64,000 nt of DNA from positions 608,001-672,000 of the forward strand of contig CBDDCA010000006.1 in the NCBI GenBank assembly GCA_965226055.1, written 5' to 3'. Shown here one piece after another: positions 49,850 to 56,282 of the stretch. The stretch's first letter is position 1, and each line of letters opens with the position of its first letter. This DNA comes from Spirochaetia bacterium (GTDB lineage: Bacteria; Spirochaetota; Spirochaetia; WTKD01; G963693115). The notes beneath the pieces are model-generated. The model did not search any database. It was not told where the DNA came from and saw nothing but the letters and a program-made list of their open reading frames with translations. A program made the position numbers and the translations under genes.

Positions 49850-52271
49850 TATTCACTAATTTATTAGGAACAACAATAATTTTTTTAGGATTTTTGTTCT
49901 TTAATATCGCTTGAATAGCATCAATTGATAAAGCAATAGTTTGTAATTGCTCTTTTACTGTGTCTGCTTTTACTTTTGTTTTAGCACGAGTTTTACCGTT
50001 TACCTGTACTACCAACTCTATCTCTGCTTCCTTTGTGAGATTCTCCTGATATTGAGGCCATGGCTCATATGCAAGTGTTTTCTGATACCCTAATTCTTCC
50101 CAAAATTCTTCTGCTAAATGAGGGGCGTACGGAGCAAGCAAAAGAACAAAGGGCTGCCATATTTCCTTATATCGAACACTGTGGATATTCATCTCATTAC
50201 TGAGTATCATCATTTGAGAAATAGCAGTATTAAACAAAAAATTGCTGGTATCCTCACTCACCTTTTTAATTGATTGATGCAATGTCTTGATAAGTTCTGT
50301 AGGAGGAGCATCGGTACTGAGAGGTTTATCAGCAATACCACATAGCTTAAGTAAAAAACGATGTATGCCTTTGAGTCCATTAGTTGACCAAGGTTTTTCT
50401 TGTCGTAAAGGACCCATAAACATTTCATATAATCGCAAACTATCAGCACCATAGGTATCCACAATATCATCAGGGTTGATAACATTGCCTAAAGATTTTG
50501 ACATTTTATTTCCATCTTCTCCTAAAATCATTCCTTGATTTACGAGCTTATGAAAAGGCTCTTTTGTATTAACTGCCCCTATATCATACAGCACTTTATG
50601 CCAAAATCGTGCATACAATAAGTGAAGAACAGCATGTTCTGCTCCTCCTATGTATAAATCCACAGGCAACCAGTACTCTATATTTTTTTTCGAAGCAAAT
50701 TCAGTTACATTACTCGGATCAGTAAACCGTAAATAATACCAACACGATCCTGCCCATTGTGGCATAGTATGAGTCTCACGTTGCACTGTTTTACCATTCT
50801 CTAAGGTTACTGTACACCATTCTTTTATTGCTGCAAGAGGGGACTCTCCTGTACCCATCGGAGAATAACTTTCTACTTGTGGAAGGGTAAGGGGCAACTC
50901 TTCTTCAGCAAGAGGAATAATTTCATCAATATGCGTCTTAAGAACAGGAATAGGTTCTCCCCAATATCGTTGTCGACTAAAAATCCAGTCACGTAACTTA
51001 TACTGAGTTTTCGCAGCCCCTAACGATTCCTGTTCTAACCAAGCTATAACTTTTGCCTTTGCTTCTTGTGTAGAAACACCATTGAAAGGATCACTGTTTA
51101 TAAGAAAGCCATCTCCGATATATGCTTCTTCTAAACTGTCATTTGAAATACCCCGCTGTTTAGAAACTACTTGTATAATAGGAATATTAAACTTTTTTGC
51201 AAAATCCCAGTCTCTCTCATCATGTGCAGGAACAGCCATAATTGCCCCTGTTCCATATCCCATCAATACATAATCCGAAATCCAAATAGGAATCTGTTTT
51301 TTTGTAACTGGATTAAGTGCGTACGCACCAGAAAAAACTCCTGTTTTCTCTTTGTTAAGTTCAGAACGCTCAAAATCTGATTTTTGAGAAGACTGTACTC
51401 TATACTGCTGTACTTCTCTCATATGAGATTGAGGAACAATGCTATCAAGTATAGGATGCTCAGGAGAAACTACCATATATGTAGCTCCCCACAAAGTATC
51501 AGGTCGTGTCGAAAATATCACAAGGGATGAATCAAAGCTAACAATAGAAAATGAAATTTCTGCACCTACACTTTTCCCTATCCAATTTTTCTGCATTATT
51601 TTTATTGATTCAGGCCAATCAAGTAACTCTAAATCATCTAGTAATCTATCAGCGTACTGAGTAATTTTTAGCATCCATTGCATTAAATGACGTCTTTCTA
51701 CAGGATGGTTTCCTCTTTCACTCCTTGGACCGTCATCGGTATTTAACACTTCTTCATTTGCTAGCACCGTACCTAATGCAGGGCAGAACCATACAGGCAT
51801 TTTTTTCTGATATGCCAATCCTTTTTTATACAGCTGCAAAAATATCCACTGTGTCCAACGGTAATATTCTGGAGAATGTGTTGATACTTCTCTACTCCAA
51901 TCATACGAAAATCCTAGCCGTTTTATCTGTTTCCGAAACCGTTCTATGTTTTTTTCAGTTGTTATCTGAGGATGCGTTTTTGTTTTTATTGCATAATTTT
52001 CCGCAGGTAATCCAAAGCTATCAAACCCCATTGGATGCAGTATATGATACCCGTTCATACGTAAAAATCGAGCATAAATATCAGAAGCAGTATATCCTTC
52101 AGGATGTCCTACATGAAGCCCTGCTGCAGAAGGATACGGAAACATATCCAATATATATTTTCTTTTCTCTTTTGGAATAGAAGTATCTTCACATACTTCA
52201 AATGTTTTATTCTTTTCCCAGTAGCGTTGCCACTTTTCTTCTATATACGAAAAATTATAGCTTTTTCTCAT
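49839..52271 (-). CDS. leuS: Leucine--tRNA ligase
   Basis: [26 protein letters not shown] and KMSKS motifs. Confidence 0.98.
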
Positions 52272-52411
52272 ATTTTAATAATACACTGGTATAGTAGTAA
52301 TTACAAGAAGCCTCTGTGATAGAACTATATATAATGGTAACCTAAAAGGAAAAATTCTAAAATTTTACTTATGTTTATTTGACAAAATGTAAAACAATTT
52401 AAAATACTATT

Positions 52412-52533
52412 AAGGTGATACTCTACAATTTTACTTTCAAAAGATGTACTTATGCCTCCTGACTAATGTCTACCTACAGGTAAAAAAGTGTAGAGTACTA
52501 CAACAAATACATCTATTCTGTAGGTATTTTTTT
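52412..52533 (+). ncRNA. Candidate structured small RNA (unassigned)
   Basis: TTGACA at 52379; long imperfect stem 52419-52434/52480-52497; 9-bp complement 52471-52479/52518-52526; T-tract after 52527. Confidence 0.35.
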
Positions 52534-52552
52534 ATTTTTTCTTGCTCTTTTT

Positions 52553-53461
52553 TTACTCCTTTGTCGCATTTATTCCTTGATCCTGTGTCTTTTTTGTTAC
52601 TTGAGCTGGTGATTTAATTTCAAAAATTCTATTAATAGCATAATCTAATTCATATATATATATATTTCCTTTACCTTTTATATTTATTTCTTTTCTTGTA
52701 AAAGAACAATCTATTTTAGATTTATTCTTATGAGTTATACTATGAAAAGCTGTTGTGTTAAAATAAGTTTTATATGCAGGAGCAGAGGAAAGACGACAAG
52801 AATAATTAACACTCTCACCTATAACAAATAACTGTTTGTTAATTACTTTAAAGAATATTTCTCCATAATCAATTCCTACTCCTATCCCAGTATCTGCTAA
52901 TTCTAACTTAAAATATCTTCTATGTTGACTATACATCTCTCTAAACATATTATGTAACTCAATAGAACATTTCATACAATCTAAATGAGCATCTTCATTT
53001 ATCTCTTCTATAAAATGGCATAAAATACCATCTCCTGTAAATTTATCATAAACAGCATTATGTTTTTTTATTACTTTAGATAACTCTGTGATTAAATTGC
53101 TCAAAAAAAGAGGATAAAATTGTATGCTTTCACAAACAGACATTAAATCAGAGCTTTTTCTAATATCTAAACATAATGTGTAACATTTTAAAGTTTTTTC
53201 ATGAACTTTTACATAACCTTCAGGGTTTTTGACATAAAAAAGAGGGTAGATCGCATTTAAGTCTTTTAATTTTTCTAATATTACAGGATTTACAATATCT
53301 TTAAAAAATCCTTCTATTTGTCCTCTTGCTTTTGTTTCTTTTCCTTCATTATCATTTTCTAATGACTTTCTAATTTGTTCTTTTTCAACTTCTATTTGTT
53401 CTTTTGCTTTTGTTTCTTCTTCATTATCATTTTCTAATGACTTTTCATTTTCAGCTGTCAT
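52553..53461 (-). CDS. Standalone class III nucleotide (adenylate/guanylate-type) cyclase
   Basis: Metal-binding Asp in LDIRKSS, DKFTGDG, GIGVGIDYGE and transition-state N/R in GESVNYSCRL. Confidence 0.88.
   Translation of the reverse strand: MTAENEKSLENDNEEETKAKEQIEVEKEQIRKSLENDNEGKETKARGQIEGFFKDIVNPVILEKLKDLNAIYPLFYVKNPEGYVKVHEKTLKCYTLCLDIRKSSDLMSVCESIQFYPLFLSNLITELSKVIKKHNAVYDKFTGDGILCHFIEEINEDAHLDCMKCSIELHNMFREMYSQHRRYFKLELADTGIGVGIDYGEIFFKVINKQLFVIGESVNYSCRLSSAPAYKTYFNTTAFHSITHKNKSKIDCSFTRKEINIKGKGNIYIYELDYAINRIFEIKSPAQVTKKTQDQGINATKE
53311..53444. repeat. Imperfect direct repeat (about 57 bp x2) encoding KSLENDNE.(K)ETKA..QIE in the cyclase N-terminus
   Basis: 53311-53369 matches 53389-53444. 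Confidence 0.85.
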
Positions 53462-53469
53462 TGTTGAAA

Positions 53470-53982
53470 TTAATTTTTATTTACAATAGATTTATAATAA
53501 TCAAAAATGGTTTCTTTAGGTATTACTACACCAGGTAATCCAGTATAATATTTATCCCAAGGGGACCCTTCTAAGTGAGTAAGATTTATTAATTGTGTAG
53601 CAGTCCAATCTGAGTATACTTCACAAACTACTTCTATTAAAGATTGTATTTCTTCTTCCACAAATCCTTTATTATCCAGTTGGTATGATTTTTTTGTATT
53701 TCGTGCGTATTGATTAATACTTTTACGAAGTGGATAATATATTTTCGGTACAACAGGACCTAAAGTCCATGCTTGTATTTCTTCTGCAAATAGATATTGA
53801 TTTTTTACAACACTGATAGATCCAAAACAAATATAAATTAGTTTTAATGTTTTTAATAAATCACTATCTTTTTTCTTATCTATAAAATATTTAACAATTG
53901 TATTACTCACAGCAAATGCATTAGTAATTGGTTTTTCAATTACCAATGCATTTTTTGTATTATGTGTGTCACCCATAAACAC
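53470..53982 (-). CDS. Panacea domain (DUF4065 / SocA / GepA-like) antitoxin; likely start is the ATG at 53976
   Basis: LKTLKLIY, LFAEEIQAWTLGPVVP.IY and QLINLTH.EGSPW motifs; RBS AAGGA 8 nt before ATG 53976. Confidence 0.9.
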   Translation of the reverse strand: MFMGDTHNTKNALVIEKPITNAFAVSNTIVKYFIDKKKDSDLLKTLKLIYICFGSISVVKNQYLFAEEIQAWTLGPVVPKIYYPLRKSINQYARNTKKSYQLDNKGFVEEEIQSLIEVVCEVYSDWTATQLINLTHLEGSPWDKYYTGLPGVVIPKETIFDYYKSIVNKN

Positions 53983-54061
53983 AATCCTTCATAATGATGT
54001 ACCTAAAGAATAAATATATGCAAAAGACATAAATATTCATTGAGGCCACCCTCTATCAGAG

Positions 54062-54090
54062 ATTTTACCATTATTTTGATATTATGTCAA
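54062..54090 (-). promoter_or_regulatory. Near-consensus sigma70 promoter of the Panacea-cyclase operon
   Basis: TTGACA-17 nt-TAAAAT with an extended TG. Confidence 0.8.
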
Positions 54091-54368
54091 TATTTATTGC
54101 ATTATTTAAAATAAATGTAAAGTATTGTATACAATTATTTTAAATTCTCTATCTTTTCTAGCTATTTTAATTTAATTATATCTATATTTAGTATCGATTT
54201 TAATGGGATCTATCTTTAATATTTTTTAGTATCTCGCTATATTTCTTTAATTGTTTCTTTGAATAAATTTTAAAAAATTTTATTTTAAAAACTCAAGAAC
54301 CAAGTGCATCATGAAAGGCTTTCAAAAATAGGACTCACATAAGGGCTATATTGCTATACTACTATTAG

Positions 54369-55514
54369 ATGAGTAAACAAGACAAAAAATCAGCGTCTAC
54401 CCCCCCCCCCCCCCCCCCCATACGTTTCAAGCAGGATGATGGCTCTGATTTTCCTGATTGGCAAGAGAGGAGGCTGGGGGAGCTTTGTTGTATTAAGACT
54501 GGAAAACTTGATGCAAACGCTATGGTAAAAAATGGAAAATATCGTTTCTATACTTGTGCAAAAGATTTTTTCCAAATTGATACATATGAATTTGATACTG
54601 ATGCGTTAATTATTTCAGGAAATGGAGCAAATGTTGGGTATATTCATCACTTCAATGGAAAATTTAATGCTTACCAAAGAACTTATGTTTTAGATGGTTT
54701 TACTGATTCTATTTATTACATCAGACATTTCTTAGATAAATATTTATATAAAATAATCTACAAAGAAAAGAGAGAGGGGGTAACTCCATATATTGTTATG
54801 TCAACCTTAACAAGAATGAAAATAAAACTCCCTTCCTTGCCTGAACAACAAAAGATAGCATCTTTTCTGCAGAGTGTAGACACAAAGATACAGCTCCTTG
54901 AAAGAAAAGTAGTGCTGTTGCAGTCATACAAAAAAGGCGTCATGCAAAAACTCTTTTCACAGGAGCTACGCTTTAAGGACGAGCAAGGAAACGAGTACCC
55001 CGATTGGGAAGAGAAGCGATTGGGAGAGATTTTAGAATATGAACAACCTACAAAATATATTGTTGATTCTTCAAAATATAGCGATAATTATAGTATACCT
55101 GTTTTGACAGCTGGCAAAACTTTTATACTAGGATATACTAACGAAACTTATGGGGTGTTTACAAATCATCCAGTTATTATTTTTGATGATTTTACTACTG
55201 TGAGTAAGTTTGTAGATTTTGATTTTAAGGTTAAGTCATCTGCCATGAAAATATTGAAATTAAGAAAGAATGTACAAGCTAATATAAAGTTAATATATGA
55301 ATGTATGCAAAAAATAAATTTCTCATTAAAAGGGCATAAAAGATATTGGATTTCAGAATATCAACATATAACTATTTCTTTTCCTTCCTTCCTCGAACAA
55401 CAAAAGATAGCCTCTTTTCTGCAGAGCCTAGACACAAAAATATCGCTTACACAGAAACAAGTAGTCCTTACAAAGCTGTATAAGAAAGGCTTACTACAAA
55501 GGATGTTTGTGTAA
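54369..55514 (+). CDS. hsdS: Type I restriction-modification specificity subunit (orphan, two TRDs)
   Basis: Two conserved repeats PS..EQQKIASFLQS.DTKI; K.G.MQKLF; RFK...(F/Y)PDW. Confidence 0.95.
   Translation: MSKQDKKSASTPPPPPPIRFKQDDGSDFPDWQERRLGELCCIKTGKLDANAMVKNGKYRFYTCAKDFFQIDTYEFDTDALIISGNGANVGYIHHFNGKFNAYQRTYVLDGFTDSIYYIRHFLDKYLYKIIYKEKREGVTPYIVMSTLTRMKIKLPSLPEQQKIASFLQSVDTKIQLLERKVVLLQSYKKGVMQKLFSQELRFKDEQGNEYPDWEEKRLGEILEYEQPTKYIVDSSKYSDNYSIPVLTAGKTFILGYTNETYGVFTNHPVIIFDDFTTVSKFVDFDFKVKSSAMKILKLRKNVQANIKLIYECMQKINFSLKGHKRYWISEYQHITISFPSFLEQQKIASFLQSLDTKISLTQKQVVLTKLYKKGLLQRMFV
54400..54419 (+). repeat. C20 homopolymer inside the hsdS 5' end (in frame, encodes poly-Pro)
   Basis: Counted directly. 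Confidence 0.9.
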
Positions 55515-55520
55515 AAAGTA

Positions 55521-56282
55521 TTGGCACAGACAATCAATCAAAAAAATATTTTTCCTTGTATTATTGATATGAACGCACTCAACAAAAAGTACTCAACAGT
55601 ATATAAACACTCACCCTCAACACCATTACCTCGTGAAAAGCTATTAGAGGGGAGTGTGCAATCACTTTCAGATACAGAATTACTTGCTTTATTATTAGGA
55701 AGTGGCACAAAAAACTATTCTATTTTTTCTATTGCAAAACAACTTTTAGAAAAACTAGACTCTTATAGAGCATCCGATATCAGCATAAAACATTTATTGC
55801 GTATCAATGGCTTAGGAAAAGCAAAAGCAATGGCAGTACTCGCAGCCTTAGAAATAGGAAGAAGAAGATTTATTCCTAGAAAATGGAGAGTAAAATGTCC
55901 TTTAGAAATCTTGCCTTTACTTTCACATTACTCTGACAGAGATCAAGAACATTTTATTGTTATCACCCTAAATGGAGCAAACGAAGTACTGTCAAAGCAT
56001 GTAGTATCTGTTGGCTTACTCAACAAAACATTGGTACATCCTAGAGAAGTGTTTACATTTGCAGTACAAGATCATGCCGTATCGGTAATACTAGCACACA
56101 ATCATCCAAGTGGAAATGTAGAACCAAGCATTGAAGATATTGAAGTTACTCAAACCCTTGTAAAAGCAGGAAACATTCTCAATATTACAGTGCTTGATCA
56201 TATTATTTTTTACATAACCAATTATTACAGTTTCTATGGCGAAGGAAAATTGGAAGAAATAGAAAACAATGCGAATCTTTAG
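55521..56282 (+). CDS. radC: RadC/UPF0758 JAB-domain protein (true start may be the ATG at 55569)
   Basis: PREKL, LSDTELLALLLGSG, VHPREVF, HNHPSG...PS.ED and LDHII motifs. Confidence 0.95.
   Translation: MAQTINQKNIFPCIIDMNALNKKYSTVYKHSPSTPLPREKLLEGSVQSLSDTELLALLLGSGTKNYSIFSIAKQLLEKLDSYRASDISIKHLLRINGLGKAKAMAVLAALEIGRRRFIPRKWRVKCPLEILPLLSHYSDRDQEHFIVITLNGANEVLSKHVVSVGLLNKTLVHPREVFTFAVQDHAVSVILAHNHPSGNVEPSIEDIEVTQTLVKAGNILNITVLDHIIFYITNYYSFYGEGKLEEIENNANL

Follow-up and report, generated by a model that had tools for sequence, protein, structure and literature searches.

A Panacea antitoxin and a soluble nucleotide cyclase, its putative toxin, form a probable toxin–antitoxin cassette in an uncultured spirochaete

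The window analysed here is a stretch of 64,000 nucleotides from an uncultured spirochaete, and on its reverse strand lie two closely spaced genes. The first, panA (53470..53976), encodes a stand-alone Panacea (DUF4065/SocA) protein of 168 amino acids, and the second (52553..53461) encodes a class III nucleotidyl cyclase of 302 amino acids that is the putative PanT toxin. Both open reading frames, their order and the 8 bp between them are as claimed in an earlier note on this DNA. PanA passes the curated cut-off of the Pfam family SocA_Panacea (PF13274; E = 1.4e-12, 49.0 bits, cut-off 25.7), falls under the 190-bit cut-off of the NCBIfam model SocA_antitoxin (49.6 bits) and is 29% identical to the PanA of phage phi52237 (E = 6e-17). 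Its ATG at 53976 stands 8 nt past a GAAGGA motif, and an independent gene call likewise gives 168 amino acids (P0168); a GTG at 53982 is an alternative start, yielding an open reading frame of 170 amino acids (53470-53982). A sequence search found no solved structure of a PanA, its sole match being a designed repeat protein (E = 0.022). No additional helix-turn-helix or other DNA-binding domain was found in PanA, which makes autoregulation hard to explain and which we count against a toxin–antitoxin (TA) reading.

The two co-directional genes stand behind one strong promoter-like site. A candidate promoter (54062..54090, reverse strand; TTGACA, 17 nt, TAAAAT, with TG preceding the -10 hexamer) is located about 85 nt 5' of the panA start. 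This sigma70-type site, already picked out in the earlier note, is near-consensus, with 11 of 12 matches, and is the top site within 52000-54600, yet promoter-like sites are not in excess in the region (21 versus 17.4 +/- 3.8 in shuffles); the same scan returned no terminator-like site there. Immediately 5' of the -35 hexamer, an inverted repeat (54104..54145; 16 nt, 94% complementary, 10 nt apart) could be an operator. The spacer that runs from the TAA of panA to the ATG of the cyclase gene (53462..53469, reverse strand; TTTCAACA) holds no Shine-Dalgarno motif, which suggests that the two genes are translationally coupled. The one Rfam match within 52200-54450, to a snoRNA, is at the level of chance (E = 0.81).

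The genes and the promoter-like site are carried by an AT-rich segment of 1,973 bp (52316..54288). At the same site, a genome of the same genus (G001) has 12 unrelated bp instead, and the flanks are 96-97% identical between the two species. The low GC content noted earlier is borne out (0.23-0.28 over 52250-54249 versus 0.36-0.40 in leuS), as is the position between leuS and an orphan hsdS: 281 non-coding bp downstream of the cyclase gene lead to the leucyl-tRNA synthetase gene, a two-TRD hsdS stands on the other side, and the nearest N6_Mtase match of the genome is ~198 kb off. The right edge of the segment coincides with the onset, at 54289, of a repeat common to the genome's dispersed hsdS genes; inspection of the indel junctions by eye revealed neither a target-site duplication nor inverted ends. 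At the other end, one copy of a dispersed repeat of ~50 nt (52527..52580, reverse strand; 35 blastn matches in the genome) contributes the final 9-11 codons and the stop of the cyclase reading frame and then continues for 26 nt more.

The product of the second gene is a true class III cyclase of the PF00211 family and is predicted to be active. It exceeds the curated cut-off of Guanylate_cyc (E = 1.1e-7, 32.1 bits, cut-off 21.9), and class III cyclases fill the top ranks when its AF2 model (pLDDT 85.1) is compared with the PDB by Foldseek (target-normalised TM-scores 0.73-0.85). All 68 aligned relatives keep the metal-binding Asp pair (D99, D144) and the transition-state Arg (R223), and N219 is retained in 6 of the 7 close relatives, the consensus of the wider family at that position being V. 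Conservation of the full set of metal-binding and transition-state residues is what an active cyclase should show. The adenine-type Lys is also retained, whereas a Phe (F212) stands where relatives carry Thr; the earlier note had called the catalytic residues intact and the Lys kept beside a Phe replacing Thr or Asp, and these calls were correct. In the AF2 model, a long N-terminal helix (residues 6-53 and 59-69) and the cyclase domain (91-273), followed by a poorly conserved C-terminal tail, leave no further domain, in keeping with the earlier claim that a sensor is lacking. The charged, duplicated N-terminus described from the sequence is present in the DNA as an internal tandem duplication (53311..53451, reverse strand) with a period of 75-78 nt, which encodes the repeated KSLENDNE...TKA..QIE of the helix; its copies, 53311-53376 and 53389-53451, are 83-87% identical at the DNA level. 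This tail is the least conserved part of the protein among close relatives.

By both sequence and fold, the best solved match is CyaB of Pseudomonas aeruginosa, a class IIIb adenylate cyclase (PDB 3r5g; 7.4e-12 in a sequence search of solved structures, against 1.1e-4 for the PycC structure 7r65), and both proteins carry the substrate Lys within a DKF(T/V)GD motif. Unlike CyaB, which has Thr there, the PanA-linked clade carries Phe at the second base-specifying position; the spirochaete cyclase also lacks a regulatory domain and belongs to a mobile cassette of two genes.

The pairing itself recurs. Contig C4 of this genome carries a PanA of 185 amino acids followed after 6 bp by a cyclase of 254 amino acids, and this second pair is 52% identical to the first in PanA and 48% in the cyclase; at about 50% identity in both genes, PanA and cyclase have therefore diverged together. 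Near-identical copies of the C4 pair, which we do not count as mutually independent, are found at L010 and in G001, so PanA and cyclase are seen directly adjacent at 52553-53976, on C4 and at L010/G001, and the conservation that the earlier note had proposed to look for among gene neighbourhoods exists. Given the second pair and the indel relative to the same-genus genome, PanA and the cyclase move between genomes as one unit. Four metagenomic relatives of the cyclase (P0003-P0006) are 49-54% identical to it, two of which and a 50%-identical PanA relative come from contigs of equal size (P0003/P0172, 975,373 bp; P0005/P0169, 11,982 bp), from which we infer that each couple shares one contig; for P0004 and P0006, no PanA relative was paired among the 120 of 1,113 matches listed. 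The closest PanA relatives parallel the closest cyclase relatives among the matches listed. The same genome also encodes PanA next to small membrane proteins at two loci, L002 and L003.

Beyond this close clade, the cyclase family is large, with >1,000 cluster representatives, most of them stand-alone enzymes whose neighbours vary. This wider family is not linked to PanA, which counts against the TA reading: an HMM search placed a Panacea reading frame beside only 1 of 80 genome loci, L010, and by Pfam no more than 1 of 45 neighbours on the same strand is a Panacea protein. Blastp clustering of 57 same-strand neighbours, with a Pfam scan of 45, identified no common partner; the sole recurrent neighbour is Lipase_3, at 3 loci. 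In a phylum-wide sample, 8 of 401 genomes match at E <= 1e-35, and apart from G000 these belong to the wider family (125-149 bits, compared with 393-432 for the close clade) and add no further PanA-linked member, while a sample of relatives gave matches in 2 of 61 genomes, G000 and G001. The cyclase had no tblastn match in 50,697 phage records, a scan of IMG/VR with the close-clade alignment gave 0 relatives among 90 pattern matches, and a scan of JGI metagenomes returned 3 loci, all from a distant group of 34-36% identity and 0 from the close clade.

A cyclase-like toxin under the control of a Panacea protein has a precedent, contrary to the earlier note, in which no characterised pair of this kind was known: Kurata et al. 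in 2022 validated PanA and PanT of the Burkholderia prophage phi52237 (PNAS, PMC8832971). According to the main text of that study, HHpred calls this PanT an adenylate/guanylate cyclase, described as a 'putative nucleotide cyclase', which is toxic in E. coli, and its PanA rescues growth and pulls down with the toxin (PMC8832971). The two cassettes are alike in having an upstream stand-alone Panacea protein, a gap of a few bp and a soluble protein of ~300 amino acids that is read as a cyclase, with matching order and sizes (in phi52237, gp9 of 157 amino acids, then gp8 of 314, with 2 bp between), but the spirochaete cassette is chromosomal and the phi52237 pair is prophage-borne. The toxins themselves show no likeness in sequence, profile or domain: BLASTP finds no similarity (E = 0.52), hhalign gives a probability of 0.1% with 14-row and 68-row profiles alike, and gp8 has no Pfam or PADLOC match, whereas the spirochaete cyclase passes PF00211. 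Likewise, the listed 50 fold matches in BFVD include no Burkholderia phage entry. The precedent is thus an analogy as far as sequence and profile comparison reach, homology being undetected by either. Other PanAT systems described in the main texts, with toxSAS, Fic/Doc, MazF-like or membrane toxins, share the principle of one promiscuous antitoxin domain with swappable toxins (PMC8832971, PMC10440598), and what differs in the spirochaete cassette is the toxin domain. These main texts name no PF00211 or PycC-like partner, and the 88 toxin clusters in the supplement may include one (PMC8832971, PMC10440598). We read the spirochaete cassette as a PanAT TA system with a new toxin variant.

Our preferred interpretation, which we hold to be somewhat better than an even bet, is a type II TA-like PanA-PanT cassette whose toxin is a predicted active, soluble class III nucleotidyl cyclase. 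The TA reading with a cyclase in the toxin slot, put forward in the earlier note, fits both the upstream position of PanA and the joint travel of the two genes. PanA would bind the cyclase directly and hold off its activity, as may be expected from five PanA:PanT pairs pulled down as complexes in the published work (main text of PMC8832971); one possible mode is that PanA blocks the homodimer needed to form class III active sites. Co-folding of PanA with the cyclase supported such a complex weakly, with a median ipSAE of 0.41 (runs 0.00, 0.52 and 0.41; best of 3 controls 0.00; partner pLDDT >= 76) and 0% contact agreement between runs. In the calibration of the method, 58 of its 80 solved complexes reached the mark, as did 2 of its 110 mismatched pairs; of these, 7 complexes and both mismatches reached it at scores <= 0.60. 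Loss or displacement of PanA, through loss of the cassette, stress proteolysis or phage infection, would then free the cyclase to convert an NTP, most likely ATP in view of the retained adenine-type Lys, into a cyclic nucleotide at an unregulated rate. Growth arrest could follow once the nucleotide acts on targets in the host, and such targets exist here, since the genome contains 5 matches to the cNMP_binding domain as well as 4 further class III cyclases. Arrest from NTP depletion is less likely because the published PanT left the ATP level unchanged and only slightly lowered GTP (main text of PMC8832971). The role of the cassette is probably abortive-infection defence or addiction to the cassette.

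Pycsar systems, attributed to Tal et al. 2021, reportedly combine a PycC cyclase with a PycTM or PycTIR effector, and raise an alternative that we judge unlikely: the cyclase would be non-toxic and make a phage-triggered cyclic nucleotide that activates a distant effector or receptor, with PanA as sensor or brake. The spirochaete protein does resemble Pycsar in its class III-type cyclase domain, in its matches to five PADLOC PycC models (best E = 3.5e-13) and in a fold similar to that of the cUMP synthase 7r65 (Foldseek E = 1e-9), and the cNMP-binding proteins encoded in the genome, along with the location of the cassette beside hsdS and its variation between species, also speak for signalling. 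However, generic adenylate cyclases match it as well as PycC does or better (Foldseek E = 1.2e-11 for 3r5g), it retains the Lys that is Ala in PycC 7r65, and the cNMP-binding reading frames are on other contigs or >300 kb from the cassette. An effector gene with a cNMP-binding domain and a transmembrane or TIR domain is not adjacent, as the earlier note had stated; PanA, the sole operon partner, stands in its place, and the 281 bp downstream end at leuS. The link to Pycsar suggested there, for which the PADLOC PycC matches are the argument, finds no support in this arrangement. As a whole, that interpretation is partly supported: its toxin slot fits and its residue calls hold, the novelty of the pair fails, and the tie to Pycsar is unsupported.

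It is also improbable, in our estimate, that an ordinary regulatory cyclase has come to lie by chance beside a phage-associated Panacea gene in accessory DNA, with no interaction between the two. The many stand-alone cyclases of the wider family and the weak co-fold signal would fit such a chance association, but order and a spacing of 6-8 bp are kept across two pairs only ~50% identical, PanA and cyclase relatives probably co-occur on the equal-sized contigs, their closest relatives run parallel among the matches listed, and the modelled cyclase appears to have no sensor domain through which a signal could enter. A cyclase that is toxic by other means than cyclic nucleotide synthesis, either because its coiled-coil N-terminus sequesters a target or because its palm-domain chemistry has changed towards a linear product or the modification of a substrate, would agree with the clade-specific remodelling of its pocket (Phe for Thr, Asn219 for the family's Val) and with the published cyclase-like PanT, which chiefly affected transcription with no product identified (main text of PMC8832971), but is very unlikely given the fully conserved metal-binding and transition-state residues and the poor conservation of the N-terminal tail among close relatives.

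A bolder reading is conceivable, albeit a long shot. The PanA-linked clade may be a distinct lineage of class III cyclases with a remodelled base pocket, in which Lys is retained, Phe replaces Thr and Asn is back in place; its product would be a cyclic nucleotide, either non-canonical or unusually toxic, that arrests growth without a dedicated effector, with PanA as a phage-sensing brake. If true, the cassette would be a minimal abortive-infection system of two genes, the second messenger itself being the poison.

The published PanA-cyclase toxin poses a mechanistic puzzle, as transcription is struck first and the product is not known (main text of PMC8832971). The spirochaete cassette offers a cleaner handle on this puzzle, with an unmistakable class III cyclase and textbook catalytic residues that make it easy to design mutants of the active site, swaps of specificity (Phe to Thr) and the identification of the product. 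Additionally, PanA-cyclase pairs may be under-counted because the paralogous cyclase P0002 has no Pfam match at E <= 0.01, and members of this clade can evade domain-based surveys. Finally, if the cyclic nucleotide itself proves toxic, such cassettes would link TA biology to cyclic-nucleotide immune signalling.

The Panacea protein and a class III cyclase with a complete catalytic set are encoded as a closely spaced pair downstream of a single promoter-like site. Both genes run in the same direction on the minus strand: a stand-alone Panacea (DUF4065) open reading frame at 53470-53982 (PF13274 at E 1.4e-12, scoring 49.0 bits over a 25.7-bit cut-off) and, 8 bp past its stop, the cyclase at 52553-53461 (Pfam Guanylate_cyc at E 1.1e-7, with 32.1 bits over a cut-off of 21.9), which lacks a ribosome-binding motif of its own. 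The first protein, PanA, is a Panacea-domain protein rather than a SocA equivalog because its NCBIfam SocA match (49.6 bits) falls far under the model's 190-bit cut-off. Its start is likely the ATG at 53976, 8 nt past GAAGGA, giving 168 aa, and a gene call of the same size is present in the protein collection. Upstream, TTGACA-17-TAAAAT with an extended -10 TG (54090-54062) is an 11/12 match and the top-scoring site of the region, whose 21 promoter-like sites are no excess over shuffled sequence (17.4 +/- 3.8); no terminator-like site was found in the operon region. GC content is 0.23-0.28 over the operon against 0.36-0.40 in leuS, and the flanking genes encode LeuRS and a two-domain HsdS. The earlier note had described such an AT-rich operon between leuS and hsdS with a strong promoter, and its observation was correct in all the details that were checked. 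The host genome holds five Panacea genes in total. Two of them (L002:1414-2203 on contig C6 and L003:1414-2218 on contig C4) overlap at their ends with small downstream ORFs of 109 and 122 aa that contain hydrophobic stretches, and look like pairs of PanA with a putative membrane toxin; another (L001:1420-1875) has no obvious partner.

An AlphaFold2 model of the cyclase, built from 68 relatives (pLDDT 85.1, pTM 0.77), has two N-terminal helices, a long one at residues 6-53 and a short one at 59-69, followed by a compact alpha/beta core (91-273) and a low-confidence tail. All top ranks of a Foldseek comparison with the PDB were class III cyclases, including the 6fht chimera (E 7e-12), P. aeruginosa CyaB (3r5g; E 1.2e-11, TM 0.77), Cya2 (2w01), mammalian C2 domains and the cUMP synthase 7r65 (E 1e-9). 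The catalytic residues are intact, as had been claimed: D99 (LDIRK), D144 (GDG) and R223 are unchanged in 68 of 68 aligned sequences, and the canonical Asn219 is present in the PanA-linked clade, at a site where the wider family has Val. The adenine-selecting Lys of DKFTGDG is likewise kept; its counterpart in CyaB is the substrate Lys, and in the cUMP synthase an Ala. Its retention favours ATP as the predicted substrate. The Phe three residues ahead of G215, already remarked on as replacing the Thr/Asp of adenylate cyclases, is the state of the PanA-linked clade; CyaB and the wider-family consensus (LTVVG) have Thr, 7r65 has Val, and the substitution leaves a range of possible products. The charged, duplicated N-terminal tail is evident in the DNA (53311-53376 against 53389-53451, 83-87% identity) and lies inside the long helix.

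Five PADLOC PycC models match the cyclase (best E 3.5e-13), as a Pycsar-like signalling system, a PycC cyclase with its effector, would lead one to expect. However, PycC was matched no better than ordinary adenylate cyclases, which match equally well or better, and the cyclase is flanked only by PanA and 281 non-coding bp, with no adjacent effector. The case for such a system is weak, and the link to Pycsar-type defence drawn in the earlier note was not upheld.

In an exhaustive HMMER search at E <= 1e-3, the family of the cyclase comprised 1,149 cluster representatives, 17 of which also passed E <= 1e-30. Most span 330-420 aa and have an extended N-terminus that resembles a coiled coil. Identity to the window cyclase reaches 48-54% in just five proteins, P0002-P0006. 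A custom HMM built from six Panacea proteins found a Panacea ORF in one of 80 family-encoding genome loci (L010), and when 45 neighbours of the wider family on the same strand were scanned with Pfam, Lipase_3 alone matched more than one (three members). Linkage to PanA is therefore a trait of the close clade and not of the wider family. In the three lipase loci (L023:4240-6397, L028:171-2367 and L032:4578-6774, from Treponema and Desulfovibrionaceae), the gene for a wider-family cyclase overlaps a downstream class 3 lipase gene (Lipase_3, best E 5e-13) by 11-26 bp, a candidate two-gene module.

Within the close clade, the pairing recurs. Contig C4 of the host genome carries a second pair (L004:643-1971, about 58.3-59.6 kb), in which a 185-aa PanA is followed after 6 bp by P0002, a cyclase of 254 aa. 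The cyclases are 48% and the PanAs 52% identical to those of the window, having diverged in step, so the two pairs are not a recent duplication. P0002 has no Pfam match at E <= 0.01 and would therefore be missed by domain-based surveys. Near-identical copies of the C4 pair occur in L010 and in G001, a same-genus genome, and were not taken as mutually independent. Among the matches listed from a profile search with PanA relatives (120 of 1,113), P0172 (50% identical) lies on a 975,373-bp contig and P0169 (50%) on an 11,982-bp contig, exactly the contig sizes recorded for cyclases P0003 and P0005; the matching sizes indicate co-occurrence and do not prove adjacency. P0004 and P0006 had no PanA counterpart among those same listed matches. 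That a regulatory cyclase lies beside a Panacea gene by chance is unlikely, because two diverged pairs share the 6-8 bp spacing and co-occurrence is matched elsewhere. That the toxin has some activity other than cyclase is the less likely reading, one that the conserved catalytic set does not point to. With its pairing conserved in the close clade, the window pair is reasonably read, as proposed, as a toxin-antitoxin system with the cyclase as candidate toxin.

The pair has been inherited and has moved as one unit. Identity between G001 and the window is 96-97% through leuS to 52315 and resumes at 54289; the intervening 1,973 bp (52316-54288), containing the promoter, both genes and nothing else, are replaced in G001 by 12 unrelated bp. 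No target duplication is evident at the junctions, and the right edge is the start of a repeat common to the dispersed hsdS genes of the host. The cyclase ORF ends within another dispersed repeat of ~50 nt (52527-52580; core ...GTTCAAGGATTAAATGCGACAAAGGAGCAAAAAAA...), which provides its last codons and stop and has at least 35 copies in the genome (the window and 34 other places). About a dozen copies run on into identical sequence before a 275-aa ORF (L102:2251-3078) with a hydrophobic C-terminal half and no Pfam match. This repeat may be a leader, a terminator or a recombination site.

The hsdS of the window (54289-55514) is one of seven full-length two-TRD hsdS ORFs spread over five contigs (C1, C3, C4, C5 and C6), only one of which has a type I hsdM beside it (C6:359393-360433). 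Since the 5' region is conserved among these copies, as is the repeat upstream, and the G001 hsdS at the same site has another first target-recognition domain (window 54469-54815 unmatched), shuffling between dispersed copies is suggested. The 3' half (54831-55522, ~690 bp) recurs at two further places in G001 with 91-92% identity. A RadC-like JAB-domain gene (55521-56282, plus strand; PF04002, E 3e-39) begins 6 bp past this orphan hsdS.

The earlier note knew of no characterised pair of Panacea and cyclase, yet one had been published: among nine validated PanA-PanT pairs is that of Burkholderia prophage phi52237, whose toxin HHpred relates to adenylate/guanylate cyclases with 97% probability (Kurata et al. 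2022, PMC8832971). That report describes toxicity in E. coli, neutralisation by and pull-down with its own PanA, inhibition of transcription most and translation next, RelA-dependent ppGpp accumulation, and unchanged ATP with GTP only slightly down. In record DQ087285 the pair is gp9 (157 aa) followed by gp8 (314 aa). Although the phage PanA is a homologue of the window's PanA (29% identical, E 6e-17), gp8 has no detectable similarity to the window cyclase (BLASTP E 0.52; hhalign probability 0.1% for profiles of 14 and of 68 rows) and no Pfam or PADLOC match, whereas the window cyclase passes Pfam Guanylate_cyc. No Burkholderia phage protein was among the 50 matches listed in a BFVD fold comparison. 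Full-text literature searches, extended to terms within PMC10440598 and PMC13069673, turned up no account of PanA with a PF00211/PycC-type cyclase; supplementary toxin-cluster tables may hold one.

The validated PanAT pairs suggest, by analogy, that PanA would bind the cyclase and hold it inactive, and that free cyclase would cause unrestrained cyclic-nucleotide synthesis and a growth stop. Such a cassette may serve phage defence or merely its own upkeep. Because class III cyclases act as dimers, we infer that PanA could plausibly neutralise by blocking dimerisation. Co-folding, one of the checks proposed earlier, gave weak support: with partner pLDDT >= 76, the median ipSAE of 0.41 stood above the best of three controls (0.00), while the runs (0.00, 0.52 and 0.41) included one at zero and had no contacts in common, and passes at or below 0.60 are wrong more often than right unless the guess is already likely. 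In calibration, 58 of the 80 solved complexes reached the mark, as did 2 of the 110 mismatches. A cyclic-nucleotide flood would find targets in the host, since its genome has five matches to cNMP-binding domains and four large class III cyclases; simple ATP depletion is argued against because ATP was unchanged with the phi52237 toxin (PMC8832971). New here is the nature of the candidate toxin that PanA would neutralise: it belongs to a rare clade of genuine class III cyclases whose base pocket is remodelled.
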